Source: Escherichia phage ECO71P1. From it: a DNA stretch of 64,000 nt. This document shows, piece by piece, positions 1,697 to 26,824 of this stretch (its first letter is position 1; every line of letters begins with the position of its first letter). The position numbers were made by a program, and so were the translations under genes. The notes beneath the pieces are model-generated. The model worked only from the letters and a program-made list of their open reading frames with translations. It was not told where the DNA came from and ran no database searches. The stretch lies in sequence record OP172789. One strand, given 5' to 3'.

Positions 1697-2040
1697 ACAT
1701 TCTCCACGGGTCGACGAATGAGTTTGCGTAATCCTTCGGGCCAGACCTTCTTGATGACGGCCTTTGCTGGGCTGGATGAAAGCTTCTTCAGCTTCAATAG
1801 GACACAACCTTCATCATCGTTCGGTTGCACCTGGATAACGACTCGCGCTTGTCGGTCAATGACCATGACATCCCCAACGCGAATGTCTTTCACCAACACG
1901 CCCATCTCCTTCGTGCCGGATACGCCAATCACGTGGTCGCAACGGACTCGCGACGGTAGCAACGTGCCGCCTTCAGCCATCTCACGCACACGCTTCTTAA
2001 TCTCTGCGCCATACAGCGTTTCATCTTTAACATGAGCCAT
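1693..2040 (-). CDS. hypothetical protein (start trimmed to MAHVKDE)
   Basis: Internal ATG preceded by AAGG; avoids overlap with upstream gene. Confidence 0.4.
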   Translation of the reverse strand: MAHVKDETLYGAEIKKRVREMAEGGTLLPSRVRCDHVIGVSGTKEMGVLVKDIRVGDVMVIDRQARVVIQVQPNDDEGCVLLKLKKLSSSPAKAVIKKVWPEGLRKLIRRPVENV

Positions 2041-2521
2041 GTTCAAGTACCTTATAGAATTTAGTGGTGAATCGCTCGTCGCCATAGTAGCGATAATTTC
2101 CGCCACCTGTGTGATCAAACCTTACCCATTGAATTAAAGTCTGGTCAGCGTCATGCGACACGTGAATCACTCGGCCATTAACAGGAATTGCACCCTCTTC
2201 CGCGTCCTTGCTTATGATTGAGTCGCCGTTCTTTATGTCAAATATGTCAATTGGCTTAAGGCGCGGCTTGTTATCAGCATAAGTTTTAATAGGTAAGGCA
2301 ATGCAGCGAGAATTTGAATGATACACAGGTCTTGTTGCACCCTTGACGTTGCGCTTCAGCAATTCATCAATGGCATAGTCAACATCATCACTTTCAAACT
2401 CCTTCATGATGAAGTCTCTTACCCTTACACGAAGGTTGACATCTGCTTCTGCACGTCTCAATGCGTGTAAAATTTCTTTAGCTTCTTCTTTGTTTAACAT
2501 TAAAGGGCGATGAATGATCAT
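2027..2521 (-). CDS. hypothetical protein
   Basis: 164 aa ORF. Confidence 0.45.
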   Translation of the reverse strand: MIIHRPLMLNKEEAKEILHALRRAEADVNLRVRVRDFIMKEFESDDVDYAIDELLKRNVKGATRPVYHSNSRCIALPIKTYADNKPRLKPIDIFDIKNGDSIISKDAEEGAIPVNGRVIHVSHDADQTLIQWVRFDHTGGGNYRYYGDERFTTKFYKVLEHGSC

Positions 2522-2675
2522 AATTAACCTCTGATTTGTGACACAAAACGTTTATAATGTTCTTTGGCTAAGACGCGTGCACGCTCTTTCGTATGGCCAC
2601 TGGCTTCGAGTACGCGACGAAGCTGCTTGATTGCGTCCGCTTTACTAATCTTGTTATCGCTAAATTGATATTTAT

Positions 2676-2897
2676 TCATGCTTCACAAGCCGCCTTAATT
2701 TGACGTGGAGTAACGATGACCACTTCACCAACCAGTGACTTGTCGTCTTCTTTTACCGTGTCGATTCGAACGCGGTAATGATTGCGACCGCGCGAATCAG
2801 TAAGGTATTGATCCAGCTCAAGGATGGTGCCTGCGCGCATATTCTGTCCTGACATCCAACGGATGCGGTCCCCAGCCTTAAGAGTTTTCTTTCTCAT
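2676..2897 (-). CDS. hypothetical small protein (start trimmed to MRKKTLKAGD)
   Basis: Longest ORF would overlap the next gene extensively; internal start fits gene packing. Confidence 0.35.
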   Translation of the reverse strand: MRKKTLKAGDRIRWMSGQNMRAGTILELDQYLTDSRGRNHYRVRIDTVKEDDKSLVGEVVIVTPRQIKAACEA

Positions 2898-2904
2898 CTT
2901 CAAC

Positions 2905-3183
2905 TCACTTATAGTATTTAAACATAGCCGCGCAAAAGTCTTGCATGGCATTCTTAATCTGCTTCTTGAACAACGGGTCATGCATCGTTTCAACATTCGT
3001 CTTAATCCGAACGTGACCGATAACATCAAACGCAGTCGCTGGCATCGGCTCATAGATTTCATGATCGTTCAAGATTATATCTAGTTTTGACTCAGAAATC
3101 ACGGGATAATTCTTTCCAGCAGTAAACTGGTCATCAATCGATGACGTGCACTTGACAAAGAACACTTTGTATGTAGTAATCAT
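2905..3183 (-). CDS. hypothetical protein
   Basis: 92 aa ORF. Confidence 0.4.
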   Translation of the reverse strand: MITTYKVFFVKCTSSIDDQFTAGKNYPVISESKLDIILNDHEIYEPMPATAFDVIGHVRIKTNVETMHDPLFKKQIKNAMQDFCAAMFKYYK

Positions 3184-3389
3184 AGTGAGTCCTTCGGGCC
3201 GCAGTAGCGCCCGTCCAGGTAGCGGTCATATTGGATTAAGGCGAACGTTTTCAACGAAAGGTTACGGCGCTTAAACAGGTGACCCGTTGATGGATTCTGC
3301 TCGTGCGCCGTTGGATAAAGGCGTGACAGGTAGTGGATGAGGACTTGTAAAGCTCTACGTTGCTTTGTTATTCTCCCTTGTGTATTCAT
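3180..3389 (-). CDS. hypothetical protein
   Basis: 69 aa ORF, ATGA overlap with downstream gene. Confidence 0.3.
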   Translation of the reverse strand: MNTQGRITKQRRALQVLIHYLSRLYPTAHEQNPSTGHLFKRRNLSLKTFALIQYDRYLDGRYCGPKDSL

Positions 3390-3618
3390 GGCTGAATCTA
3401 CCCTCTGTCAATATCCGGTCGTGGATGACTATACCAGTGCAGCGCAGTCGGTTGGCATTGCTTCGCGCCTTTGCTGCTTGATGAGGATTGAACAAGCCAA
3501 ACAAACTAGCCTTAAAAGCAAACTGGTAATATTTGATTAAGGTACTAAGTGCTAACTCAATCCTGTCTAAATTAATCATAATATCACCTCGTCAGAAAAG
3601 CAAATATTTTGATGATAA

Positions 3619-4266
3619 TTATCCTGTGGCCTGCATATTGCGTACATACTTCTGCTCTAATGAATAGATGAAGTCGGCGACCGTCAATCCTTTGGTGTGC
3701 CACTCATACATTGTGTAGCCTGTATTCAGGAAATAGCCGCGCACCTTGTCCATTGCTTCAGATTCCTCCATGGAAGCCATCAGCGCGGCGACGTTATCAT
3801 AAGAAGGCACAAATCCCTTCTTGCGTAGCGCATTGCGCAAATCTTTAGTTCTGAATCCAATCTTGCACAGGTCATCACGGCCCGTTGAAGATGCAACCTT
3901 CGGCAGCGCAAGGAACTCTTTGAGGAACATTGAGATGTTCAAGTCGCCTGCGTCATCAAGCTTCTGGAGTCGGTTGCGACCGCGACCCTTGAATTCACTC
4001 GCACGAGGGTGAGCACCAAAGCAGTGCGCCCCTTCCAGTTTTGGGTCGATGATCATCAAATCTTTGCCTACGCGCAATTCAACATAGTAAAGGTATGTCT
4101 CATCGATAAGCTTCGTGCGCTTACAGTTGATGGAGTCCTTATCGTAACCAAAACCACGCAACACGGTTGAAATCATCCGGTTCATTTCTTCTCCGTGAAC
4201 GTCACTCTCTTTGTTCAGTTCACCAAGATGTTGAAAGAATTTAGCGATGTTGATTGCTTTATTCAT
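3619..4266 (-). CDS. hypothetical protein
   Basis: 215 aa ORF immediately upstream of the helicase gene, stop/start adjacent. Confidence 0.5.
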   Translation of the reverse strand: MNKAINIAKFFQHLGELNKESDVHGEEMNRMISTVLRGFGYDKDSINCKRTKLIDETYLYYVELRVGKDLMIIDPKLEGAHCFGAHPRASEFKGRGRNRLQKLDDAGDLNISMFLKEFLALPKVASSTGRDDLCKIGFRTKDLRNALRKKGFVPSYDNVAALMASMEESEAMDKVRGYFLNTGYTMYEWHTKGLTVADFIYSLEQKYVRNMQATG

Positions 4267-5936
4267 CAGAATTCATCCTTATCTCTTCCTAAAGAACGTT
4301 TGCGTTCAATAACCTTCTTCAAGAATTCAATATCTTCAGGGTCAGATTCATCGCGGATAAGATACGCCAAAATAGTCATCAGGTCAGAAATGTATTCCCC
4401 TGCTTCATTCTTAATCAGCGGCGTAAAGTAACCACGCTGGTTGCGATAGGTTGCAGGCTCAAATCCAAGCTTCGACATGTGCGGCGCAAGGGTACGTGAG
4501 AAAGGCGACTTGCCGCACTTAGCTCTGAAGCCCATAGCGATTGCACCACTAGTGATGTGCCAGCGTCCGCTGTGATGTCGGTCATAAGGCGCGGTGATGA
4601 CGACTTCAACAAGGTCGTTGTCGACCATCTCGTCACGGATAACGCCGCGAGCACGTTCCATTTCGTTCTTGCTGAACTCAGTAAGCATGCGAGACGTTTC
4701 ACCAACAAAAGCGTTGTAACCTGCTTCGCCGTGCTTCTCCATCCACGCAGCACACTCAGCCATCAACTGCCAAACATCTTCTTTCAAAGTGGAAAGGTCA
4801 GCTTGGAAGTCTTTCGACCAGTTCGGTTGCCCGTCCTTGTCTGCGAGTTGGCCAACAAAGATAGGATACACACGACGGTTGCCCGTATCGTCACGCTGCA
4901 TGCCTGCGTATTCGTTGCCGTCCATGATAGCAATCCACTGGCGCGGTTTAACCTGCGTATCTTCAAATTTGAAGTCCAGGTCATCTTCCGTCTTAGTCAG
5001 GAATGCTTTCATGTTTTCGATGTCGGCCTTTTTAAAGCCTGTCATCTCGCCAACGTTCGCGATAATTGAGCGACCCGTAATAGCTCGCAAGAACGGGTTG
5101 AAGTTCTGCGCGGCCAAGTTCAACGGAATCGGTGTTGCGTGGCGGTCGTTCATAATAGCTTCGCAAAGCAGCTTACTGAAATAACTCTTCCCTGCGTTCT
5201 GGCCGCCGATGAGCGCAATGGAGATTGGCGCTTGACAGCCAGGGTTGGTCAGGCGGTTATAGAGCGATAGCCAAAAATACACACCGATTTGTCGGTTTAA
5301 CTCTGTATCGAACGGTCGGAATAGCTCGATAAGGTATTTCTCAATGCGCGCAGTACCGTCCCATTCAGGCAGCTTCTTGTAGAAGAAGTCCATCAGGTCG
5401 TCGCGCTGATAACGCATGGCCCATTCCTTATAGGATTGAGCGACCTGACGTGAGTTTGGGTTGGACAGGCCTGCTGCGTCGACAGCGGCAACTATCTCTG
5501 TGACTTCCAACGTCCGGTCGGTGAATGTTTCTCCGCGATGGTCGACTAAGCGTCCACGAAAAGTATCTTTGTGAGGGAATGGGACAATGCCGCTTCCCTT
5601 ATCAAACAACGCGTCGAAAACCGCATAACGGTTCATGTCACTCGTCCGGTCCGCCTGAAGAACAAAATCATCTTTCGTCGGTTTGTAGTGAGGGAACTTG
5701 ATTACCTGAAGTGAGGCGAGCAAACGTGCTCTTTCAACCAAGTCTTCTTCACCGTAGCACTCCATGCGCTCTGCATCTTTCTCAACAGCCTTATGCTGGA
5801 GGCTGATTTTAGCTCTGGTGCCTTGCTGCTCTGCCGCTTGCATCTCTTCTGAAACACCAGCGTCTTGAATTTCGTCAAAGGTTGCACCAAATTCATCACC
5901 TGTATCCTCTGGAAGATTGTCATGTTCAATTGACAT
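4266..5936 (-). CDS. P-loop NTPase, putative replicative helicase (D5 / primase-C-terminal-like)
   Basis: Walker A-like IALIGGQNAGKSYFSKLL in 556 aa protein; strong AGGAGG RBS before ATG at 5936. Confidence 0.55.
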   Translation of the reverse strand: MSIEHDNLPEDTGDEFGATFDEIQDAGVSEEMQAAEQQGTRAKISLQHKAVEKDAERMECYGEEDLVERARLLASLQVIKFPHYKPTKDDFVLQADRTSDMNRYAVFDALFDKGSGIVPFPHKDTFRGRLVDHRGETFTDRTLEVTEIVAAVDAAGLSNPNSRQVAQSYKEWAMRYQRDDLMDFFYKKLPEWDGTARIEKYLIELFRPFDTELNRQIGVYFWLSLYNRLTNPGCQAPISIALIGGQNAGKSYFSKLLCEAIMNDRHATPIPLNLAAQNFNPFLRAITGRSIIANVGEMTGFKKADIENMKAFLTKTEDDLDFKFEDTQVKPRQWIAIMDGNEYAGMQRDDTGNRRVYPIFVGQLADKDGQPNWSKDFQADLSTLKEDVWQLMAECAAWMEKHGEAGYNAFVGETSRMLTEFSKNEMERARGVIRDEMVDNDLVEVVITAPYDRHHSGRWHITSGAIAMGFRAKCGKSPFSRTLAPHMSKLGFEPATYRNQRGYFTPLIKNEAGEYISDLMTILAYLIRDESDPEDIEFLKKVIERKRSLGRDKDEF

Positions 5937-14359: not shown

Positions 14360-15043
14360 ATGAAAAAAGTAATTGTTGTAACTGGCTGCAATTCCGGTCT
14401 TGGTAAATCCATTTTTGACACCCTTGGCGCTTACGGTCACGAAGTTGTCGGTATTGATTTGGACAACGGTTATGACATCCGTAACGCGAAACAGATGAAA
14501 GAGCTTCTCTCTCAATACGACGTAGAGGGCTTGATCAACTGCGCTGGCGTCAACTCCAACAACTGGTTTGAAGACGTTAACTACGAAGAGTTTAATCGCG
14601 TTATGCACACCAACGCCTTCTCTTTCGTTAACACGACTCAGGCCGCGCTGAAAAGTCTTATTGACAACAAAGGTTTTGTGATCAACATCGTTTCCAACGC
14701 TGCGCATATTCCTATGACGTCCAGCTTGTGTTATAATGCTTCCAAGGCCGCTGCGCTTATGATTAGCAAGCAGATGGCTCACGAGCTTACGCCTAAATAC
14801 GGGATCACGGTCTTCTCTATTAGTCCTAACAAGTTGCGTGGCACTGGTATGTCTAAACAGATTGAAGATGCTGTTTGCGCGACTCGCGGCTGGACTCCTG
14901 AGTATGCTGCTGAATACCAGAAAAAGGCGTTGATGAATGGATTGGAGACTGAGCCGCAAGTAATTGCTGACTTCATTCGCCATATCTTAATTACGGGCGC
15001 ATGGCGCTTTATGTCTGGTACTGATATTCCATTTGGGAAATAA
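14360..15043 (+). CDS. short-chain dehydrogenase/reductase (SDR) family oxidoreductase
   Basis: VTGCNSGLGKS cofactor motif and YNASKAA catalytic YxxxK. Confidence 0.65.
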   Translation: MKKVIVVTGCNSGLGKSIFDTLGAYGHEVVGIDLDNGYDIRNAKQMKELLSQYDVEGLINCAGVNSNNWFEDVNYEEFNRVMHTNAFSFVNTTQAALKSLIDNKGFVINIVSNAAHIPMTSSLCYNASKAAALMISKQMAHELTPKYGITVFSISPNKLRGTGMSKQIEDAVCATRGWTPEYAAEYQKKALMNGLETEPQVIADFIRHILITGAWRFMSGTDIPFGK

Positions 15044-15849: not shown

Positions 15850-15875
15850 TGGCCGTCCTAATGGGCGGCCTTTTT
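15850..15875 (+). terminator. rho-independent terminator
   Basis: GGCCGTCCTAATGGGCGGCC hairpin followed by TTTTT. Confidence 0.65.
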
Positions 15876-15888
15876 GTAGGAGGCCAAT

Positions 15889-16431
15889 GTGTTATTTCTT
15901 CCTTATGACTTCGAAACAACCGGATTAACCGTGCACCCGAAAGCGCCGCTTGGGATGCAGCCGCGCCCTATTGAATTTGCAGGCCTGTTGACGGACGGCA
16001 AAGAGATTCTTGAAACGTTCGAGTTCATAATCAACCCTGAAATCGTGATTGAAGAAATCATCACAAAGATTACCGGATTAACAAATGAAGACCTTGAGTG
16101 CAATCCGCCATTCATCAATTTTGTTCCGCAGCTAAAAGAAATCTTCAAGAAGACTGATGCCACTATCGCGCACAACCATGCGTTCGATAAGAACATTCTT
16201 GATTATGCACTACAGCGCGAAGGACTTACACTTGATGATGTTAATTTCCCAGAAATAAACATCTGTACAGTTGAGCAAACCTTGCCTATTTTTGGCCGAA
16301 GAGTTAAGCTTCAAGAGCTGTATGAATTATATTTCGGAAAATATGAACAGAAGCACCGTGCATTAGACGACGTAATATTACTGCACAAAGTCTGCCAACA
16401 AATTGGCGTATATGACATCTGGAGTAAATAA
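15889..16431 (+). CDS. DnaQ-like 3'-5' proofreading exonuclease
   Basis: Exo motifs DFETTG, HNHAFD, HRALDD; GTG start after AGGAGG. Confidence 0.8.
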   Translation: MLFLPYDFETTGLTVHPKAPLGMQPRPIEFAGLLTDGKEILETFEFIINPEIVIEEIITKITGLTNEDLECNPPFINFVPQLKEIFKKTDATIAHNHAFDKNILDYALQREGLTLDDVNFPEINICTVEQTLPIFGRRVKLQELYELYFGKYEQKHRALDDVILLHKVCQQIGVYDIWSK

Positions 16432-19328
16432 TGTTTCCACAATTGAGAGTTCGCAGCGGTTACACGTTCAAAGAAGTATATGGACGGCATCCTGAAATTA
16501 TAGCACGGCTCAAAGAGTTGGGCTGCGAAGTCGCGGCATTAGTTGATAACAATACATGGGGTCACGTTCGCTGGGAAAAGGAATGTCAGAAGAATGATAT
16601 CAAGCCTATGTTCGGCATGGAAATTCCAATCATCGACCCTGATGCGGACCCGAAAAAGGGATTCAAACCGAAGGCTTGGATATTGGCGCTTGACCTGAAA
16701 TCTTTTTACAACGCTACGACACTTGCAACACAGCGCGGCGGACTGACCCGTGCAGAGTTCGGGGCGCTGGATGGCGTCGTTAAATTCTGTGGCGGGGCTG
16801 TGGAGTTGCTGCGACCAGAGGACTACGATTATATAGACGTCAACCCATCATCGTTCCTTTTGGCCAAGCGCCAGGTATTGGCTCACCGCAACAACGGAAG
16901 GCCGCTGGTTTTAACCGGATACAACCACATGCCTTCACCTGAGCACGTTGACTTTGCTTATGCTTGGGAAGTGCGCGACACGGTCAAGCCGCACTGCATC
17001 GTTGACGCGGAAGACTTGTGCAAACAGCTTAAAGGAATCCTGACCGAAGATGAGTTGAATCAAGCAACGGCCAATGCGGTTGATATTGCAAACGGAATCG
17101 TTGGGCTTGGCCTGAAGCTGCGCAAGGCACCGATTATCCACCTTGCTGGTGACATGGTAAAGCTTGCTCGTGAGGGTATGGAGTACCGCCTTAAGGCAGG
17201 TCACATCAAAGAATGGACTCAGGAATACGAGGACCGATTCAACGAAGAGATTCACCAGATTCAGCTGAAAGACTTTGACTCATACTTTCTGGTGGTAGCG
17301 GACCTTGTACGATTCGCAAAAACAAAAATGCTTGTCGGACCCGCTCGCGGCTCATCGGCTGGTTCACTGGTTTGTTATTGCCTCGGCATCACGGAAGTTG
17401 ACCCAATCCCGTATAAGCTGCTGTTCGCCCGATTCATCGACGTAAGCCGCGCCGACCTTCCTGATATTGATATTGACTTTGAGGATACCAAACGCTATAT
17501 GGTGTTTGATTACCTTAAAGAAAAATACGGCGAAATGAACGTTGCAAAGCTTGGCAACATCAACACTCTTAAGGCCAACTCAGTAATGGCTCAGGTTGGT
17601 AAGAAATTCAACATTGGATATCACGAAACGGCCAACATTAAAAACGCATTGCTTGAATACTCATCTGGTGACGCCCGTTATGGTCACGGCCTGGAGGATA
17701 CCTTTGCAACAACTACCACGGGTCAAGAGTTTGTGGCGAAATATCCTGACGCCGCGCGTTGCATGGGTGACCTTGAGATTCACCCGTCCCACACAGGTGT
17801 TCACGCAGCGGGAATCATCGTGTGTAATGATCCAATCTCTGATTACTGTACTGTAACGGCGGAAGGGATTGCGCAAATTGATAAGCCTGACAGCGAATAC
17901 CTTAACCTTTTGAAGCTTGATGCATTGGGTCTTCGCACCCTCGGAATCATTTCTGATACTGGCGTGATAGACGCTGAAACGCTGTACGGAATCAAGCTTG
18001 ATGATCAAAGCGTCCTTGACATCCTTAACGAAAACAAGATGTCAGGAATATTCCAGTTTGAAGGCGACGCTGTACGCTCAGTAACCAACTTTGTGCACGT
18101 TGATAACTTTAACAAAATCGATAACCTGACAGCACTTGGCAGACCTGGCCCGTTGTCATCCGGTATGGCCCAGAAATACATCGAACGCGCGGCAGGACGT
18201 GCGCCGATTGAGTACGACGTGCCGCAGCTTGAGCCGTACTTAAAAGAGACTTACGGCGTGTTTCTTTACCAAGAGCAAATCATGGCCGTGGTTAAAGAGA
18301 TTGGTTCATTCGACTGGGCGAAAACATCAGCTGTACGTAAGGCAATGTCAGGTCGTAAGGGTGAAGAATACTTTAACAAGCTTGGCGAAGACTTCGTTGC
18401 AGGCGCAATAAATAACGGCGTACCGGAAGCGGATGCAAGAAAGCTTTGGCAGGCGATGGCGACGTTCGGGTCATGGGGCTTTAACAAGTCACACTCCGTG
18501 TCATACGCGGTCGTGACTTACTGGACCTTGTGGCTTAAACGACACTACCCGCTGGAATTTGCCGCTGCTTGCTTACGCGCTGCTAAGGACGAAGACCAGA
18601 CGATTGCGATATTACGTGAACTTGCAAAGGAAGGCGTGGATTATGTGCCAATCGACCCTGATCACTCTTCAATGAACTGGACCATCGCTAACGGAAAGCT
18701 AATCGGCGGCATCATGAACGCTAAAGGGTACGGAATGGTAAAAGCGATGAAGTACATCGAAGCACGTGAAGCCGGAACCTTAACGCAAAAACAAAAGGAC
18801 GCATTGGCCAATGCTGAAGTCAAATACGGCGACCTTACAGAGATGCACACCAAGTTCGGTTGGGCGTATAATGACCCCTATCTGATTGGCGTTACTTCCG
18901 GTGCTTCAATACGCCAGATGAAGGAAGTCGGTGATGACGAGCGTGCAATAGTGATCGGCAAGCTGACCAAGAAAGTGCTGGCTGACGAGAACGAAGCAAC
19001 ACGCATCCGTAAACGTCTTGAGCGCGGCATTTATACAAAGCACGGCAAACTTAAAAAGGGTCTTCAAGCTGATGGTCGCTACGCAGAGTTTGACCAGTAT
19101 GGAAACAAGCTTGAGACTCAGTTCATTGACCTTATGTGCAAGGACGATTCGACCGACTCGCCAATGCGCTTCAGGATTCGCCCAGAGAAGTTCCAGAAAT
19201 ACGGTAAATACATTGCAGAGAACGTCGGGAACGGCGCATTCTTCCTGATGAAAGGCCGCAAGCTTGAAGGTATTGACATGTTTATCGTCGACGTGATCAA
19301 ACAGGTGTATCCAGATGGCAACAAATAA
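16431..19328 (+). CDS. DnaE-type (Pol III alpha / family C) DNA polymerase catalytic subunit
   Basis: PARGSSAGSLVCYCLGITEVDP...PDIDIDF and GFNKSHSVSYAVVTYWTLWLK match hallmark DnaE segments. Confidence 0.85.
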   Translation: MFPQLRVRSGYTFKEVYGRHPEIIARLKELGCEVAALVDNNTWGHVRWEKECQKNDIKPMFGMEIPIIDPDADPKKGFKPKAWILALDLKSFYNATTLATQRGGLTRAEFGALDGVVKFCGGAVELLRPEDYDYIDVNPSSFLLAKRQVLAHRNNGRPLVLTGYNHMPSPEHVDFAYAWEVRDTVKPHCIVDAEDLCKQLKGILTEDELNQATANAVDIANGIVGLGLKLRKAPIIHLAGDMVKLAREGMEYRLKAGHIKEWTQEYEDRFNEEIHQIQLKDFDSYFLVVADLVRFAKTKMLVGPARGSSAGSLVCYCLGITEVDPIPYKLLFARFIDVSRADLPDIDIDFEDTKRYMVFDYLKEKYGEMNVAKLGNINTLKANSVMAQVGKKFNIGYHETANIKNALLEYSSGDARYGHGLEDTFATTTTGQEFVAKYPDAARCMGDLEIHPSHTGVHAAGIIVCNDPISDYCTVTAEGIAQIDKPDSEYLNLLKLDALGLRTLGIISDTGVIDAETLYGIKLDDQSVLDILNENKMSGIFQFEGDAVRSVTNFVHVDNFNKIDNLTALGRPGPLSSGMAQKYIERAAGRAPIEYDVPQLEPYLKETYGVFLYQEQIMAVVKEIGSFDWAKTSAVRKAMSGRKGEEYFNKLGEDFVAGAINNGVPEADARKLWQAMATFGSWGFNKSHSVSYAVVTYWTLWLKRHYPLEFAAACLRAAKDEDQTIAILRELAKEGVDYVPIDPDHSSMNWTIANGKLIGGIMNAKGYGMVKAMKYIEAREAGTLTQKQKDALANAEVKYGDLTEMHTKFGWAYNDPYLIGVTSGASIRQMKEVGDDERAIVIGKLTKKVLADENEATRIRKRLERGIYTKHGKLKKGLQADGRYAEFDQYGNKLETQFIDLMCKDDSTDSPMRFRIRPEKFQKYGKYIAENVGNGAFFLMKGRKLEGIDMFIVDVIKQVYPDGNK

Positions 19329-19737
19329 CCGTGAACAGAAATACATATTCGTGCCTTTGAAGAAGCATTCAGAATCAATATTGAAGCTTCAACGAATCGA
19401 ATCGATGACTGGTGATGGCGTGCCGGACGTAATCGGCACCAACCGGAAAGGTCGCGGCTTTTGGCTTGAAATGAAGTTCTTTGAATCGTGGCCTGCAAGG
19501 GCCAACACTGCACCTTTCAGAAATGCATTTGAGAAAGGTCAGTGCAGCTTTCTTTCTTCGTGGAATGATTGGAAATACCCATCATTTGTTTTGCTTAAAG
19601 TCGATTCTGAGAAGATGTTTTATTTAGTCCACCCTTCGATTGAATTAAAGCGTTATAATATTGCAGACGTTCAACGTGAGATAATCGTGAAGGGAACTAT
19701 TCATCACATCATCAAGTATTTAGAGGAATTGTCATGA
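19315..19737 (+). CDS. VRR-NUC family (PD-(D/E)xK) nuclease
   Basis: GVPDV...EMK motif; directly upstream of SNF2 ATPase. Confidence 0.5.
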   Translation: MATNNREQKYIFVPLKKHSESILKLQRIESMTGDGVPDVIGTNRKGRGFWLEMKFFESWPARANTAPFRNAFEKGQCSFLSSWNDWKYPSFVLLKVDSEKMFYLVHPSIELKRYNIADVQREIIVKGTIHHIIKYLEELS

Positions 19738-21257
19738 AAACACAAGGGATGCGCCACCAGCTTCTGGCGCTTGATAAAGCAGGCCGCAGAAAATACTTTG
19801 CCTATTTCATGGAACAGGGTCTTGGTAAAACTTGGACCGCTTTGGCAGAGTTTGAAAAGCACTTCGCCGCTGGCGCGTTCGATGCCATGGTCGTCATCGC
19901 TCCAAACGGTGTCCACTCAAACTGGATTCGTCGTGAAGCACCAGAACACCTTTCCATCAAGTGGATTGGGCACTACTGGCGCGGCAATGACAAGATGAAG
20001 ACTAAAAAGGGCAAGGCGCTTTGGGAGAAGATGTTTGCTGATCACTACCCTGAAGGCGAAGTGCCTGCGCGCATCTTCTCATTCAACATTGATACCGTCA
20101 ACACACCAGTCGGTTATCAACACATAGAGTCGGTCTTGAAGAAATACCGCTGCCTGATGATCATCGACGAATCAACGCGCATCAAGAATAACACAGCCAA
20201 ACGCTCCATCAAGGTTGTGGAATTGGGACGGCTGGCAAAGGCCCGTCGAATCCTTTCCGGTACGCCGTTGCCGCGCTCGCCTGCGGATATTTACATGCAA
20301 TACCACTTCCTTGAAGCAGGATTGCTCGGCACCAAATCATTCCGTGCCTTTAACTCTGAATTCACGGTGCTACTTGAAGCGCACGACCCAGAGATGCAAG
20401 CCATCCTCAAGAAAATCGGCGGCAATGGCTATGGGATTCCGCAAGTGCCGCGCAAAGACCAGTTTGGCCGACCGATGTACAAGAACCTTGACAAGCTTAT
20501 CCGGCTGATGGAACCGCACTATTTTCGTGCAACAAAAGCAGAATACTTGCCTGACCTTCCAGAGAAGGTGTATAAGTTTATCGACTTCGAGTTGTCGCCT
20601 AAACAACGCGATGTTTACGATGAACTCAAGAATGAGTACAACTATTTGATGGAATACAAGGGCGAAGAAGAAAACGTCAAGTTTGAGATGATCGCATCGC
20701 GCACCAAGATGAAGCAGGTTACATCCGGCTTTGTCAAGGTGTATGATGAGATGGTCTACATGGAAGACAACCCACGCTTCACGGCCTTTAAGGATTATGT
20801 GGAAGGGGTGTTGGAAGACGACCCAGAGCGCAAATTCATCGTTTGGGCCATCTTTAAGGAAGAGATGAACCAGATTAAGGAATGGCTTGAGTCTGAAGGC
20901 GTGGTCACTGGTGTATACAACGGTGAAACATCAAAAGAGCAGCGCGAGTTCTTGATTGATGACTTCCAGAAAAACACAGTCGCGAATGGTGGAACACAGG
21001 TATTGGTTTGCCACGCTGCAGCGGCAGGCATCGGCATCACACTTACCGCCGCTGACTTGGCAATCTATTATTCTTGCAACTATGACAATGAGTTGCGCAA
21101 GCAATCCGAAGACCGAAATCACCGCATCGGCACCAAATCAAGCGTGTTGTATGTTGATTTTATTGGTGTTGATACCATCGACGAAGAAATTCAGCGTTCA
21201 CTCAGTATGAAGTCAATGCTTGCTGATCACATCCTCGACGGCAAAAAGATGAATTAA
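19734..21257 (+). CDS. SNF2-family helicase-like ATPase
   Basis: GLGKT Walker A, IIDEST DExx box, C-terminal helicase-like region. Confidence 0.8.
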   Translation: MKTQGMRHQLLALDKAGRRKYFAYFMEQGLGKTWTALAEFEKHFAAGAFDAMVVIAPNGVHSNWIRREAPEHLSIKWIGHYWRGNDKMKTKKGKALWEKMFADHYPEGEVPARIFSFNIDTVNTPVGYQHIESVLKKYRCLMIIDESTRIKNNTAKRSIKVVELGRLAKARRILSGTPLPRSPADIYMQYHFLEAGLLGTKSFRAFNSEFTVLLEAHDPEMQAILKKIGGNGYGIPQVPRKDQFGRPMYKNLDKLIRLMEPHYFRATKAEYLPDLPEKVYKFIDFELSPKQRDVYDELKNEYNYLMEYKGEEENVKFEMIASRTKMKQVTSGFVKVYDEMVYMEDNPRFTAFKDYVEGVLEDDPERKFIVWAIFKEEMNQIKEWLESEGVVTGVYNGETSKEQREFLIDDFQKNTVANGGTQVLVCHAAAAGIGITLTAADLAIYYSCNYDNELRKQSEDRNHRIGTKSSVLYVDFIGVDTIDEEIQRSLSMKSMLADHILDGKKMN

Positions 21258-21331
21258 TATCAAAAATAATTTGACTTGTCAGGTAAGATGAGTCATAATT
21301 ATTTCATCGAAACGAAACAGAGGAATACAAA

Positions 21332-21595
21332 ATGGTACGCATCCTTGAACGTTACAAAAATGAAGCTACTGGCGCAATCGCGTTCAAACGTCTTTTGGTC
21401 AAAGAAATTGACGGCATGTTCCGCGTTGTAAAAGAGTTTGATTATGGAAACGGTGCTGGGGTGAATACCGTCATTATGCCTGGCATCAAGGCATATAAAA
21501 CTTTGAAAGGCGCTGAGAAGGCTTTGGCGGCTTGGAAACCTGAACGTTATCAAATGACCCGTGTTGAAGGGCTAATGCAAGAAGGTAAAATATGA
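21332..21595 (+). CDS. hypothetical protein
   Basis: 87 aa ORF with GAGGAA RBS. Confidence 0.45.
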   Translation: MVRILERYKNEATGAIAFKRLLVKEIDGMFRVVKEFDYGNGAGVNTVIMPGIKAYKTLKGAEKALAAWKPERYQMTRVEGLMQEGKI

Positions 21596-22149
21596 GCAAT
21601 ATTAATTGGGAAGATGATTTGCCGCAGGTCGCTCCTGAGAGCATCCAAGAGCGCCTTGCGCGCTTAGTATCGGAATTGGCAGAACGCCAAGAAGCTTTGA
21701 CAGAGCTTGAAGATGAAGCTGATATGCAAAAGCAGCGCATCAGTGAAATCAAAACTGTTTTGCTTCCTGGCGTTATGGATGAGCTTGGCGTGTCCGAAAT
21801 CAAGCTTGAAGACAAGACCAAGATCAAGGTCGAGTCAAAAGTTAATGCTTCAATTAAGAAAGAAAATGAATTGAAGGTATTCGATTGGCTTGTCAACAAC
21901 GGTTACGGCGGCTTGATCAAGTCCAGCGTCACGGCTGAGTTCGGTCGCGAAGAAATCGAACAAGCGCAAGAGATTGTTGCCGCGCTGCGTGAAGACGGTG
22001 TTGAAGCCACGTTGAAACAAGGTGTTCATTCTGCTACACTGAAGTCATTTGTAAAAGAACAGCTGGAAGCGGGTAATCCAGTTAGTGAAGATATTAGCGT
22101 TTTTGAGTATAAAGAAGCTAAAATAACCTTGCCTAAAAGCAAAAAGTAA
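21592..22149 (+). CDS. hypothetical acidic protein, possibly recombination-associated
   Basis: 185 aa, coiled-coil-like N-terminus; position next to SSB-like gene. Confidence 0.4.
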   Translation: MSNINWEDDLPQVAPESIQERLARLVSELAERQEALTELEDEADMQKQRISEIKTVLLPGVMDELGVSEIKLEDKTKIKVESKVNASIKKENELKVFDWLVNNGYGGLIKSSVTAEFGREEIEQAQEIVAALREDGVEATLKQGVHSATLKSFVKEQLEAGNPVSEDISVFEYKEAKITLPKSKK

Positions 22150-22208: not shown

Positions 22209-23069
22209 ATGTCTAAGAAAGAAACTACCGAAGTTGCAGTGAAAAACACCCAGATGTCCGCTATGGCTGATTTTGTCGATATGACCGATTTTGGCGCTGG
22301 TTTTGAAGGTGCCGATGCCGACGCTTATGCCATTCCTTTTATCGTCGTACTGCAAAAGATGTCTCCGATGGTCGACGAAGATGATCCAAAACACGTTCCT
22401 GGCGCAAAAGCTGGCATGTTGTACAACACCGTTACTGGTGAGTTGTATGACGGCAAGAAAGGCGTGCAGATCATCCCTTGCGCATTCAAACGCACCTTCA
22501 TCCTTTGGGGCGGTCGCGAGTCCGACGATAAAGGCTTTAAAGGTGAATTCACCAAAGAGCACGTTGATGCAGAAGTCGCGGCAGGCCGCGCTGTTGAAAT
22601 CAACGGTAAGGTATTCGTGCCAGACGAAAACGGCAAAGTGCACGAGAAGAAATCACCTTACTACGCAGATACACGTAACCACTTTGTGATCCTGTTAAAC
22701 GAAGAGACTGGTGAATTTGGTAGCGCAATGCTGTCTCTGACTTCTTCCATGATCAAGCCGTCTCGCATGCTGATGACCGCTCTGCAGCAGAAGAAAGTTC
22801 AGACTCCGCAGGGCCTGAAAACTCCGCCGACCTTCATGAACATCGTTCGCATGGGTACTGCGTCTCAGTCCAAAGATGGCAACACCTGGTCAGTTCTGAA
22901 GTTTGAGCTGGAAGGTCTGGTGCAGGATAAAGGTCTGTATGAAGTCGCCAAAGCATTCCACAACGACGTAGTTGGCGGCAACGTTAACATCGACCGCAGC
23001 AAGCAGGAAGAAGCAAGCGGTGCCGCTGGTCCTGTCAATGAAACTCCGACCGACGCAGAAGAGTTTTAA
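22209..23069 (+). CDS. putative single-stranded DNA-binding protein (acidic C-terminal tail ending in Phe)
   Basis: C-terminus ...TDAEEF resembles the acidic tails of T7 gp2.5 and bacterial SSB; inference only. Confidence 0.3.
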   Translation: MSKKETTEVAVKNTQMSAMADFVDMTDFGAGFEGADADAYAIPFIVVLQKMSPMVDEDDPKHVPGAKAGMLYNTVTGELYDGKKGVQIIPCAFKRTFILWGGRESDDKGFKGEFTKEHVDAEVAAGRAVEINGKVFVPDENGKVHEKKSPYYADTRNHFVILLNEETGEFGSAMLSLTSSMIKPSRMLMTALQQKKVQTPQGLKTPPTFMNIVRMGTASQSKDGNTWSVLKFELEGLVQDKGLYEVAKAFHNDVVGGNVNIDRSKQEEASGAAGPVNETPTDAEEF

Positions 23070-23087
23070 TCGACAATCAAATCAACA

Positions 23088-23112
23088 AGGCTGCCGATTG
23101 GCGGCCTTTTAT
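23088..23112 (+). terminator. putative terminator
   Basis: AAGGCTGCC-loop-GGCGGCCTT imperfect hairpin followed by TTTATTT. Confidence 0.4.
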
Positions 23113-23126
23113 TTATCTGGTGCATC

Positions 23127-23645
23127 ATGATAGAAAGAATTGTACCGTTACTGAAGATTCTTGCCCTTGTTGGCGCGTTCGCCGCTGGGTCATACGTTGA
23201 AGACCTTAAGCAAACCAACGCATCACTGGCCAAGGATAATCAATATCTTACATCGCTTAATGAGCGTAAGGACAAGATAAATGTACTCGAAGAGCAAATT
23301 GCATCTTTACAGGTTGAATCGGCATCGGCATATGAGAAGGGTCGCCAGGAAGCGCAACTGGTTGCTGATGACACTATTGCTCGTTACAAGTCTGGGAATA
23401 TCAAGCTGCGCGAGCAACTCAGCTGCTCCCGTGAATTACTCAGGAGTGTGCCCGACTCTGCGACCACTGGACGCCTCTCTATCCCAGAAGGAAACTGTGG
23501 ACTATCAGAAGAGGATGTCAGATTTCTTGTTCAGTTCGCCGCAGAAACAAACCGATTAAAAGAGAAGGTTAATAGCTTGATTGATACTTATAATCAGGCT
23601 AAAATTAAAATCGACCAATTCAACGCATCAAAGGAAAATAAATGA
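23127..23645 (+). CDS. putative i-spanin (Rz-like): N-terminal TM anchor plus coiled coil
   Basis: IVPLLKILALVGAFAAGSYV TM then heptad-like region; contains an embedded +1 frame lipoprotein ORF. Confidence 0.4.
   Translation: MIERIVPLLKILALVGAFAAGSYVEDLKQTNASLAKDNQYLTSLNERKDKINVLEEQIASLQVESASAYEKGRQEAQLVADDTIARYKSGNIKLREQLSCSRELLRSVPDSATTGRLSIPEGNCGLSEEDVRFLVQFAAETNRLKEKVNSLIDTYNQAKIKIDQFNASKENK
23332..23559 (+). CDS. putative o-spanin (Rz1-like) lipoprotein embedded in the i-spanin gene
   Basis: Embedded ORF with LLLVTSLGISSC lipobox-like signal; start codon uncertain. Confidence 0.35.
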   Translation: MRRVARKRNWLLMTLLLVTSLGISSCASNSAAPVNYSGVCPTLRPLDASLSQKETVDYQKRMSDFLFSSPQKQTD

Positions 23646-24235
23646 ACCAGATTTATGCAAACATTCGCCAGTGGGCTTCTGACCGTAACATCATCAAAGG
23701 TTGCGACCTTAAGGACCAATACCCGAAGCTTATTAGCGAGTTTGGGGAGTTGACCGACCACGTGGATCAACTCCATGACCTTGTGTTCTTTGACCCTGAA
23801 ATCGGATATACAGAGCAGGCCATCTGTGATTTACAAGCCGCAATCAAGGACGACATCGGCGATTGCCTTGTTGTGTTAACTATCCTTGCCGCGCAAAATG
23901 GTGCAAAAATCGAAGACATCAACGGCGGCGGTTGCGCCGACAAAGGTGCCCACCCTCACTCGTTTATCCTTCGCTTGGCAAAGACTCTCGGACGGCTTGG
24001 TGATGCCATTGCTAAAAATCAGAGTATGGATATTGATGTCACCATCATGGCCGCAGTCGATTACCTTTCCGGCGTAGCACATGATTATGGACTTCGACTG
24101 TCTGATTGCGCTCAGGCCGCCTATGAAGACATCAAGGACCGTAAAGGCGTGATGTACAACGGAACGTTCATCAAATCGACTGATCAGGCTTACGCCTATG
24201 CGCTGGAACAAGTGATGAATAAGGAGTTTGAGTGA
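23642..24235 (+). CDS. MazG-like nucleoside triphosphate pyrophosphohydrolase (all-alpha NTP-PPase)
   Basis: ISEFGELTDHV and DDIGDCLVVLTILA resemble MazG EExGEL / DxL motifs. Confidence 0.45.
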   Translation: MNQIYANIRQWASDRNIIKGCDLKDQYPKLISEFGELTDHVDQLHDLVFFDPEIGYTEQAICDLQAAIKDDIGDCLVVLTILAAQNGAKIEDINGGGCADKGAHPHSFILRLAKTLGRLGDAIAKNQSMDIDVTIMAAVDYLSGVAHDYGLRLSDCAQAAYEDIKDRKGVMYNGTFIKSTDQAYAYALEQVMNKEFE

Positions 24236-25209
24236 TGGCAGGAGAAATCAAAGCACTAAAACCGATGAAAGGTTGCCAGCGTAAACAAATCATTGAGCGC
24301 GGCGAAGACGTGCCGCTGCCTTGCGGGTTGTCATTCAAGGTCGATGGCATACGCGCGATGGCGTATGACAACTTGCCAATGGGTACGTCCGGCATGGCGT
24401 TGCGAAACGTTCAGATTAAAAAAGAGTTCCTCTTTTTGGGTGAATTGATTCACGGCCTTGATGGAGAGCTTATTGACGGCAATCCGAATGATAAGAACGT
24501 CATGCAGCAAGCCTATACCGCATGCATGAATACCGATGCTATAACAAACTTCACATGGTGGGTGTTTGATGACTTTAGCGACCCTGATTTGCCTTTCTCG
24601 GCACGTTATGAGCAATACAATCGACGCGTTGCTGAGGTCAATCAATACCTCATTGACCATGGCCGACGTCCATTCCTTCGCGCTCTCGAATATCGCAACA
24701 TCGAAAATATGGAACAGTACGCGGCAATGCAAATCGAAGCAGACCAGCTTGGCTATGAAGGCTTGTATGGCAAGTCTTGGACGGGCAAATACAAGCATGG
24801 CCGCGCGACGCCAAAGTCACGTGATGTGTGGAAGGACAAGCCGTGGACCGATGAAGAAGGACTGATCATAGACTTCGTTGAGATGATGGAGAACAACAAC
24901 GAAGCGTTCATTGATGAGTTGGGTCGCACTAAGCGTTCAAAAGAGGCTGAAGGCTTAGTCGCAAAAGGATACCTTGGCTCATTCGTAGTTGTCAATCCAA
25001 AGTATGTGGATGAGAAAGGTGAAATGATTCCTTTCCGCGTCTCCGCTGGTTCAATGCCTATGGCAGAGAGAAAAATGCTTTGGGAGAATCGCGAGAATTA
25101 TCGCAACAAATATCTGACATATAAATTCTTTAACTTTGGCATCGTTGACGTGCCGCGCTCTGCCTTGTATAAGTGCTTCCGTGATATTACCGATATGGAG
25201 TATTTTTAA
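24235..25209 (+). CDS. ATP-dependent DNA ligase
   Basis: Adenylation motif I FKVDGIRA (KxDGxR); size similar to small phage ligases. Confidence 0.6.
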   Translation: MAGEIKALKPMKGCQRKQIIERGEDVPLPCGLSFKVDGIRAMAYDNLPMGTSGMALRNVQIKKEFLFLGELIHGLDGELIDGNPNDKNVMQQAYTACMNTDAITNFTWWVFDDFSDPDLPFSARYEQYNRRVAEVNQYLIDHGRRPFLRALEYRNIENMEQYAAMQIEADQLGYEGLYGKSWTGKYKHGRATPKSRDVWKDKPWTDEEGLIIDFVEMMENNNEAFIDELGRTKRSKEAEGLVAKGYLGSFVVVNPKYVDEKGEMIPFRVSAGSMPMAERKMLWENRENYRNKYLTYKFFNFGIVDVPRSALYKCFRDITDMEYF

Positions 25210-25282
25210 CACACTGGATAAATAATTGGTGCGTATAATCTATCGCGCCGTTTTCTAGAATTTAATATACAGTGTATACATA

Positions 25283-25305
25283 AAGCCGGAAATTTCCGGC
25301 TTTTC
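25283..25305 (+). terminator. rho-independent terminator
   Basis: AGCCGGAAATTTCCGGCT hairpin followed by TTTTCTTTT. Confidence 0.65.
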
Positions 25306-26179: not shown

Positions 26180-26824
26180 TTACATAACTGCTAATGCATC
26201 CTTGTAACGCTTTCTTCGCAACTCACCGTGGTTTGCTGCGTTCGGCGCGGCCCCGTTAATCCGCTTAACGGTTGAATCAAAATTACCTGCGTCAGCAAGA
26301 GGAATACATCCGCTATTCTTGAAGAACCATGCCGCGCTGTCTGCAATATATTTTGGTTCAGTCAGAATATCAGGGTTGTTCAATGCGTCATAGCCTGATT
26401 GGCGTGTATATTCCGCATAGTTTGCCTTGCCAGTCAGCTGAATGGCACCACGGCCACGGTACTTCCAACCGTCGCCAGATGCTACCGAACCGTTGCCCAT
26501 GCGGTTTGCATATGTATTATTGGCGATTTCCATAGGTTTACGTGCAATCGACAGGGCCAATGAGTTCGGGGCGCTTCCAGAACGACCGTTGACGCTGTAA
26601 CGACTAGGCCATGTATTGGCAAGACCTTGAGCAGAGTAGTTGAGATTTTCCACAAATGTTTTCAAGCTGCCTGTCTCCACTCCTACGTTTGCAAGGAATG
26701 CCGCGATGGCATTCTTGCTTTTGATTCCGTAGTGCTCACACGCCTGCTTGAAAGGGTCCACCCATTTCTCTGCGACATCCATGCTGCATCCGGTCCCTTT
26801 AGATATTACGTTTGCGTTAATCAT
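26180..26824 (-). CDS. endolysin, glycoside hydrolase family 19 (chitinase-like lysozyme)
   Basis: FLANVGVETG...GDGWKYRGRGAIQLTGKANY matches GH19 catalytic core. Confidence 0.75.
   Translation of the reverse strand: MINANVISKGTGCSMDVAEKWVDPFKQACEHYGIKSKNAIAAFLANVGVETGSLKTFVENLNYSAQGLANTWPSRYSVNGRSGSAPNSLALSIARKPMEIANNTYANRMGNGSVASGDGWKYRGRGAIQLTGKANYAEYTRQSGYDALNNPDILTEPKYIADSAAWFFKNSGCIPLADAGNFDSTVKRINGAAPNAANHGELRRKRYKDALAVM

Follow-up and report, generated by a model that had tools for sequence, protein, structure and literature searches.

RecU, Hjc, and the stand-alone VRR-Nuc proteins are all dimeric enzymes that resolve Holliday junctions (PMC4103454, PMC5314769), a property seen in vitro in the case of VRR-Nuc (PMC4103454). 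Genes encoding proteins of the last kind are found in phages just ahead of a gene encoding an ATPase of the SNF2 family. In Liberibacter prophages, the gene encoding the DNA polymerase PolA is followed by genes for a VRR-NUC protein, a SNF2 protein, and a ligase (PMC4152171), and in the Streptococcus prophage Phi1207.3, orf24 encodes a VRR-NUC protein and the following gene, orf25, a SNF2 protein (PMC4260502). A comparable pair of genes occurs in Escherichia phage ECO71P1, within a stretch of 64,000 nucleotides from sequence record OP172789 (the whole of that stretch is called here the window). The pair had been described, from the letters of the window and its open reading frames (the original prediction), as a VRR-NUC nuclease fused in operon with a SNF2 ATPase. 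The present analysis considers what kind of nuclease the first gene encodes and what it might do together with its neighbor.

The window is 94-98% identical in nucleotide sequence to phages of Wifcevirus (WFH, FEC19, ECML-117, and Bas98, myophages of E. coli and Shigella), a genus of E. coli myophages related to the Pseudomonas PB1-like phages. Three consecutive open reading frames are at issue:

16431-19328, + strand: DnaE-type polymerase (similar to the alpha subunit of Pol III), 965 amino acids; matches DNA_pol3_alpha (3.1e-63), its finger domain (1e-37), and phrog_405 (2.4e-270)
19315-19737, + strand: stand-alone PD-(D/E)xK nuclease, 140 amino acids; VRR-NUC-like and RecU-like, with a predicted Holliday-junction-resolvase fold
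19734-21257, + strand: minimal SNF2-family ATPase, 507 amino acids; matches SNF2-rel_dom (5.9e-22), Helicase_C (3.7e-11), and phrog_62 (4e-107)

The second reading frame, which includes the stretch GDGVPDVIGTNRKGRGFWLEMKFF, begins with an ATG at 19315 that lies 14 nucleotides inside the polymerase gene, whose stop codon, TAA, is at 19326-19328. It ends in an ATGA (19734-19737), a stop/start overlap of 4 nucleotides with the SNF2 gene, and a ribosome-binding site, GAGGA, lies on the 5' side of the SNF2 start. The reading frames and the two overlaps bear out the layout that had been claimed, a 140-amino acid nuclease overlapping the end of the polymerase gene and followed by the gene for a 507-amino acid SNF2 protein. 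They do not bear out a fusion. The nuclease and SNF2 genes are separate and in different reading frames, and no nuclease-SNF2 fusion was found among the best 150 of the 306 representatives of the nuclease family described below. The 4-nucleotide overlap probably couples the translation of the two proteins. A programmed frameshift joining the polymerase to the nuclease was considered and dropped: the length of that overlap differs from genus to genus (14, 8, or 4 nucleotides, or a gap of 1 nucleotide), and no conserved slippery site is implied.

A word-indexed search for homologs of the small protein produced only six close relatives. The wider family was reached by an exhaustive HMMER search, which gave 306 cluster representatives, nearly all of them stand-alone proteins of 130-150 amino acids. 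Homologs are present in 370 phage records, 293 of which are of Pseudomonas PB1-like phages. In a family alignment of 148 sequences, with identities down to about 20%, D38, E52, K54, and Q76 are invariant in all 148, and E7 is present in 141. Nearly invariant as well are E29 (in 145), positioned after the first beta strand, and P60, R62, and T65, which fall within a family-specific insertion, WP-x-R-x-x-T, at residues 59-65. The signature of the family may be written E...RIE(N)...PD...ExK...WPxRxxT...Q. The catalytic codons lie as follows:

19333-19335, + strand: E7
19426-19428, + strand: D38
19468-19470, + strand: E52
19474-19476, + strand: K54
19540-19542, + strand: Q76

The original prediction had staked itself on the presence of catalytic residues in alignments, and they are present, essentially invariant in the 148 relatives. 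That metal-binding and catalytic residues persist at identities near 20% implies selection for catalysis. Conserved residues and predicted structure together lead to the conclusion that the 140-amino acid protein is a PD-(D/E)xK nuclease.

A search of the Protein Data Bank (PDB) with the single nuclease sequence gave only a spurious match to a lectin repeat. A first AlphaFold model, made with 6 sequences, had a predicted local distance difference test score (pLDDT) of 80, and a second, made with 148, a pLDDT of 94.7 and a predicted template modeling score (pTM) of 0.89. Both models contain the canonical alpha-beta-beta-beta-alpha-beta core of PD-(D/E)xK enzymes, followed by a beta-alpha-beta-alpha extension. 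In the second model, the elements of the core are alpha1 (residues 5-18), beta1 (24-27), beta2 (39-42), beta3 (48-56), alpha2 (76-85), and beta4 (90-96). E7 falls on alpha1, D38 at the start of beta2, E52-x-K54 on beta3, and, after a long loop, Q76 at the N-terminus of alpha2. The model thus has the three attributes that mark the superfamily: the core fold, an acidic residue where beta2 begins, and (D/E)xK in beta3. Structure searches, Foldseek among them, placed RecU and Hjc above VRR-NUC as matches to the nuclease, and in a search against viral models, the named matches were to RecU, with VRR-NUC lower.

To which family within the superfamily does the nuclease belong? Pfam's VRR_NUC model gives no match to the window nuclease even at E<=10, hence none at the gathering threshold, and matches 5 of the 148 relatives weakly (best E 0.0027). 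RecU models match the nuclease below their cut-offs, that of Pfam with an E value of 0.14 and 12.5 bits (cut-off 25) and that of NCBIfam (NF002581) with an E value of 0.035 and 13.9 bits (cut-off 154). Alignments were also compared with one another by hhalign, using a VRR-NUC reference alignment seeded from the 4QBO sequence and a second reference alignment made of phage RecU proteins:

Nuclease family against VRR-NUC: probability 96.0%, E 3.8e-9, residues 4-93
Nuclease family against RecU: probability 93.3%, E 2.8e-7, residues 32-107
VRR-NUC against RecU: probability 0.2%, E 0.27, no meaningful match

The nuclease family is linked to both VRR-NUC and RecU, which miss each other, and it therefore forms a bridge between two families of resolvases. 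PHROGs assigns the nuclease to phrog_2165, labelled "DNA helicase", and that same group is matched at 2.3e-7 by a protein of true VRR-NUC type that shares 97% identity with the stNUC fragment of 4QBO.

The name VRR-NUC, given to the protein in the original prediction, is defensible as a statement of the nearest family, considering the hhalign comparison and the match of a VRR-NUC protein to phrog_2165. As a statement of membership it goes too far: Pfam VRR_NUC is not matched, RecU is linked equally, and structure ranks RecU and Hjc higher. We read the protein, on the basis of profiles and predicted structure, as representing a distinct VRR-NUC-like and RecU-like family of PD-(D/E)xK nucleases that belongs to none of the Pfam families. 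The conclusion that the family lies outside Pfam rests on a direct Pfam scan of the 148 relatives. A blank in the precomputed Pfam column of a large protein collection was downgraded as proof, for proteins that NCBI names VRR-NUC are often blank as well. Many "VRR-NUC domain-containing" proteins lack a precomputed Pfam domain in that collection, which makes a blank a weak negative for short proteins.

The likeness to VRR-NUC (PF08774; stNUC 4QBO, saNUC 4QBN, psNUC 4QBL) resides in the N-terminal, catalytic half of the nuclease. Both have the Glu of helix 1, PD, ExK, and the Gln that pairs with Lys (in stNUC, K47 and Q57 form an active-site pair, with Q57 hydrogen-bonded to the Lys; PMC4103454), and hhalign pairs E7/D38/E52/K54/Q76 of the nuclease with E4/D32/E45/K47/Q57 of VRR-NUC, interrupted by a single 12-residue insertion after ExK. 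In both, the catalytic Asp follows the conserved basic residue of beta1 at a distance of 11 residues (vs. 28 in phage RecU). Also, the genes for both occupy a slot in a phage replication module directly 5' of, and overlapping, a gene encoding a phrog_62 SNF2 protein of 440-520 amino acids. The 12-residue insertion, the WP-x-R-x-x-T element between ExK and Gln, is absent from VRR-NUC, and the spacing from Lys to Gln has a mode of 22 in the nuclease family (18-24 in all but one relative) as opposed to 10. The nuclease is also less compact, with 140 amino acids instead of about 91 and with a C-terminal extension (b5-a3-b6-a4) of ~40 residues, and its family carries an extra, near-invariant Glu (E29) after beta1. 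Finally, the neighboring polymerase is of the DnaE type, whereas in the documented examples of VRR-NUC it is PolA.

The likeness to RecU (PF03838; 1ZP7, 1Y1O, 2FCO, 5FDK) lies in the C-terminal half, where there are similar strands after helix 2. D38/E52/K54/Q76 align to D88/E101/K103/Q120 of RecU, the first three of which are catalytic (PMC5314769), and both proteins have a long spacer between ExK and Gln with the motif T-x-(x)-P-L-x-x-F-x-x-x-Q. However, the nuclease family lacks the N-terminal region (RecU residues 1-33) and the stalk (residues 56-89), a beta-hairpin extension of beta1/beta2, both of them essential for the activity of RecU and definitive of its family (PMC5314769, PMC3424549). 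The loop from beta1 to beta2 (E29 to D38) is 9 residues in 131 of the 148 relatives, and the catalytic Asp is preceded by a median of 34 residues, vs. 87 in the RecU of B. subtilis. Moreover, RecU is a protein of Bacillota and their phages (PMC3424549), while the nuclease family comes from Gram-negative phages. As for archaeal Hjc/Hje (PF01870), there is no significant sequence match between Hjc and the nuclease, Pfam's Hjc model weakly matches 1 of the 148 relatives, and Hjc, with its E/D/ExK tetrad, lacks the Lys-pairing Gln (PMC4103454) that is invariant in the nuclease family as Q76.

The partner of the nuclease is easier to place. The 507-amino acid protein scores 78.5 bits against SNF2-rel_dom (PF00176; cut-off 24.9) and 43.7 bits against Helicase_C (PF00271; cut-off 23.5), and its best match in the PDB is the Rad54-like SNF2 core of Sulfolobus (SsoRad54, 1z63; E 4e-21), to whose motifs I, II, III, and VI its GLGKT, DEST, SGTP, and QSEDRNHRIG align. 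The motifs are invariant across 7 diverged orthologs, with identity down to about 26%. Three have the following positions:

19818-19832, + strand: SNF2 motif I, GLGKT
20166-20171, + strand: SNF2 motif II, DE
21102-21131, + strand: SNF2 motif VI, QSEDRNHRIG

With both domains above threshold and motifs Q, I, II, III, and VI intact, this part of the original prediction stands: the protein is, by its sequence, a SNF2-family ATPase and a predicted translocase. It consists of the bare core for translocation on double-stranded DNA, free of accessory domains. PADLOC matches it to the defence proteins ZorD (8.5e-28) and DpdE (1e-24). Since these matches extend over no more than the generic SNF2 core, the identity of a defence system was rejected. 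No PADLOC match was found to the nuclease.

In Wifcevirus, Pbunavirus, Carpasinavirus, Bcepfunavirus, and Tabernariusvirus, the same order of genes is conserved: epsilon-exonuclease, DnaE, nuclease, SNF2, Pam3 gp33-like, Pam3 gp34-like, MazG, and ligase (no ligase was detected at the BCSR52 locus). The genes encoding the nuclease and SNF2 overlap by 4 nucleotides in the first four genera and by 1 nucleotide in Tabernariusvirus. SNF2 is also near the nuclease in three further architectures (L003, L009, and L016), and in an Achromobacter siphophage without DnaE, a SNF2 homolog lies 3.8 kb upstream of the nuclease gene. True VRR-NUC genes, in modules with PolA and a primase, overlap a SNF2 gene (440-468 amino acids) by 4-20 nucleotides, and the gene for the protein 97% identical to stNUC is among those that occupy this slot. 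The SNF2 partners of those genes are all in phrog_62, as is the SNF2 protein of the window, which can be aligned from end to end with one of these partners (24% identity, E 5e-23). Since true VRR-NUC genes share the slot upstream of a phrog_62 SNF2 gene, the pairing of nuclease and SNF2 is an already known and recurrent phage module, and it is typical of phage replication modules (PMC4152171; PMC4260502), much as the original prediction had it. At loci L007, L008, L010, L017, and L018, each with a distant relative of the nuclease, its gene is typically the last of a replication operon, beside convergent downstream genes mostly without a Pfam match.

The pair lies within a larger block, whose other features are these:

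15851-15870, + strand: terminator-like GC-rich hairpin (8 pairs, 7 GC) with a T-run, just 5' of the exonuclease gene
15889-16431, + strand: DnaQ/epsilon-like 3'-5' proofreading exonuclease, first gene of the block; matches Pfam RNase_T (9.6e-22) and phrog_192, "DNA polymerase exonuclease subunit" (2.3e-37)
21332-21595, + strand: small conserved open reading frame, 87 amino acids; matches phrog_27467 (1.3e-53); the same slot is filled in relative L015 by a Pam3_gp32-family gene
21592-22149, + strand: DUF7307 / Pam3 gp33-like; matches PF23984 (2.6e-37); syntenic with the nuclease-SNF2 pair
22209-23069, + strand: Pam3 gp34-like; matches PF23977 (4.2e-86); syntenic with the pair and recurring beside distant nuclease relatives
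23087-23108, + strand: terminator-like hairpin (9 pairs, 6 GC), the first strong one 3' of SNF2
24232-25209, + strand: ATP-dependent DNA ligase, downstream member of the replication block by synteny; matches phrog_114 (2.4e-41)

Strong terminator-like hairpins are found on the + strand at 15851-15870 and then at 23087-23108 and 25282-25303. The hairpin scan found no strong terminator between 15870 and 21257 and, 3' of SNF2, only a weak candidate (21272-21295). The first hairpin is likely the 5' boundary of a transcription unit, and the genes from the exonuclease through SNF2 fit a single operon, because strong terminator-like hairpins lie only before the exonuclease gene and past SNF2.

What might the two proteins do? 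On balance we lean toward a proposal in which the nuclease acts as a dimer and, dependent on Mg2+, cuts Holliday junctions and other branched DNA as a structure-specific endonuclease. According to this proposal, the DnaE polymerase, the nuclease, and the minimal SNF2 translocase would be made from one transcription unit. Replication and recombination of the phage would give rise to branched DNA (reversed forks, D-loops, four-way junctions), the SNF2 motor, translocating on duplex DNA, would shift the branch point or remodel it, the nuclease dimer would resolve the branch by paired nicks, and the downstream ligase would seal them, with packageable linear concatemers as the outcome. The pair is in fact embedded between polymerase and ligase in the replication block. 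Also, in the near-identical genome of Bas98, no other resolvase or recombinase is annotated, which leaves the nuclease as the only candidate for a debranching enzyme. The case for a junction resolvase does not depend on which neighbor is closest, since RecU, Hjc, and stand-alone VRR-Nuc are alike in being dimeric enzymes of this type. From the predicted fold and the catalytic residues we infer that the nuclease forms a dimer and makes paired, symmetric nicks. Junction specificity, branch migration by SNF2, a coupling of the two proteins, and a role in recombination-dependent replication (the last suggested also in the original prediction) may be supposed along with it.

Systems that combine a motor with a junction nuclease serve in replication restart and in resolution before packaging or segregation (PMC8583203; PMC7824862). 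The pair resembles the RuvAB-RuvC and RuvAB-RecU resolvasomes and T4 UvsW with endonuclease VII by functional analogy only, in that a motor that moves branches accompanies a nuclease that cuts junctions. The protein families are unrelated: SNF2 is a translocase of superfamily 2 (SF2) acting on double-stranded DNA, not an AAA+ hexamer like RuvB, nor is it UvsW. Perhaps, and here we are on more tentative ground, the nuclease and the minimal SNF2 protein make up a dedicated two-protein phage "resolvasome", a SNF2-driven analog of RuvAB-RuvC, where SNF2 would branch-migrate or regress stalled forks and hand them over to the nuclease. Such a system would be ancient and widespread, its nuclease swapped (VRR-NUC in some phages, the variant with the insertion in others) and its SNF2 family kept.

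Several considerations weigh against a joint action of the two proteins on branched DNA. That a minimal SNF2 protein from a bacterial virus would migrate branches is supposed here from the example of eukaryotic enzymes of the Rad54/SMARCAL1 type and from a suggestion made for jumbo phages (PMC7824862). The scan for promoters and terminators gave counts of sites not above the shuffled expectation and serves as supporting evidence only. Between genera, the nuclease retains 29-39% identity and SNF2 44-51%, and faster divergence of the nuclease is not what one would expect of a tight, obligate complex. Then there are the ten distant metagenomic relatives of the nuclease. SNF2 is found in the 6-10 kb of flank examined in only 3 of them (L009, L015, and L016) and is absent from that flank in the other 7. 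Of these, 6 are in replication modules centered on a DNA polymerase of family A, accompanied in one or another by an AEP primase, a UvrD helicase, or SSB, and in the seventh (L014) the nuclease adjoins genes for a sigma factor and a Mu-like portal. With SNF2 missing near most of the distant relatives, it follows that the nuclease does not need SNF2 and that the partner is not obligate.

One might go further and suppose that the two proteins are independent. The nuclease would be a general debranching enzyme (like T7 endonuclease I or T4 endonuclease VII) that clears concatemers before packaging, SNF2 would have an unrelated task, such as RapA-like stripping of RNA polymerase or host DNA-binding proteins off the template in front of the fast phage replisome, and their adjacency would reflect shared timing of expression. 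The SNF2-less relatives, whose nuclease gene usually closes the replication operon, agree with this idea, as do the very different rates of divergence and the 3.8 kb between the genes in the Achromobacter phage, and a RapA-like role has been raised for another group of phage Snf2 proteins (PMC7824862). The stop/start overlap of nuclease and SNF2 genes is preserved, however, in at least five myophage genera, and the genes for true VRR-NUC and phrog_62 SNF2 overlap in unrelated prophages of Gram-positive bacteria and alpha-proteobacteria (PMC4152171; PMC4260502). Repeated pairing of this sort is hard to explain by co-timing alone, and we therefore consider independence rather unlikely.

Or perhaps the pair is a weapon, a translocase with a nuclease in the manner of type I/III restriction enzymes or ZorD, directed against DNA of the host or a competing phage or against host defence, and having no part in processing the intermediates of the phage's own replication. 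Many enzymes of restriction and defence do consist of a SNF2 or helicase module and a PD-(D/E)xK nuclease, the SNF2 protein of the window is similar to the corresponding modules of ZorD and DpdE, and the authors who described Phi1207.3 labelled its VRR-NUC gene a putative restriction-modification enzyme (PMC4260502). But the resemblance is to the generic core and does not extend to the nuclease, and the pair sits, in genus after genus, in one replication block with polymerase, proofreading exonuclease, and ligase. No adjacent methyltransferase or specificity partner is present in the window, and among characterised proteins, those closest to the nuclease resolve junctions and are not restriction enzymes (PMC4103454). 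A weapon thus seems improbable. Still less credible is the notion that the small protein is catalytically dead and serves only as an adaptor or a DNA-binding subunit, bringing either the SNF2 motor or the polymerase to branched DNA. Inactive homologs exist within the PD-(D/E)xK superfamily (PMC3424549), and annotation by association has made of this protein a "helicase" or a "primase", but the near invariance of its metal-binding and catalytic residues at such low identities leaves very little room for a dead enzyme. The proposal of a junction-cutting nuclease served by a branch-remodeling SNF2 motor is the one we retain.

Some neighboring genes deserve comment. The DnaE-type polymerase is short (965 amino acids), with a weak and partial match to the PHP domain (residues 5-91, E 8e-6), and Pfam detects in it no C-terminal OB or clamp-binding region. 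The open reading frame in the Pam3 gp32 slot and the gp33-like and gp34-like genes that follow it recur beside SNF2 and/or the nuclease in unrelated metagenomic phage contigs (L009, L011, L015, and L017), even where there is a separate SSB. Their products may be accessory proteins of replication or recombination. Searches of PDB sequences with the gp33-like and gp34-like proteins gave nothing usable. An Rz-like i-spanin (23127-23645) with an embedded o-spanin (23281-23559) is encoded inside the replication block, after the gp34-like gene and before MazG, ~2.5 kb from an endolysin gene on the opposite strand (26180-26824), an unusual split of lysis genes. A gene encoding a FabG-like short-chain reductase (14360-15043), with conserved counterparts in Bas98 and Xanthomonas phage XcP1, lies in the block devoted to nucleotide metabolism and replication. 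Lastly, the family A DNA polymerase of locus L018 (938 amino acids, 2039-4855) has a faint match to LAGLIDADG_3 that splits its DNA_pol_A domain, a pattern that suggests an intein or homing-endonuclease insertion.

In more than 300 GenBank records of PB1-like and Wifcevirus phages, the nuclease goes under the names "DNA helicase", "putative DNA helicase", "DNA primase", or "hypothetical protein" (as in PMC9583000), and the description of PHROG 2165 is mislabelled too. The mislabelling appears to have arisen through annotation by association and then to have been copied from record to record. Its correction affects more than 300 public genomes, those of Pseudomonas PB1-like phages used in therapy and those of E. 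coli Wifcevirus phages, and gives these genomes their only candidate for a junction-resolving nuclease.

The module of VRR-NUC and SNF2 in phage replication regions was already known, the phage group is well sequenced, and a resolvase with a motor in such a module is expected biology and no surprise. What is new is modest: a well-defined variant family of nucleases, set apart by an insertion and an extension at the C-terminus, that Pfam does not recognise, and the pairing of phrog_62 SNF2 proteins with either form of nuclease. The family is a tight one in sequence, missed by the models of Pfam, and it links VRR-NUC and RecU. That a single SNF2 family is found in the same overlapping arrangement with two forms of nuclease, in very different phages, opens the function of phage SNF2 proteins to direct testing. 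If the pair is indeed a dedicated resolvasome, this would be the first defined function for the very common phrog_62 SNF2 proteins of phages, and the unusual speed of replication reported for Wifcevirus (PMC11990801) might owe something to it.

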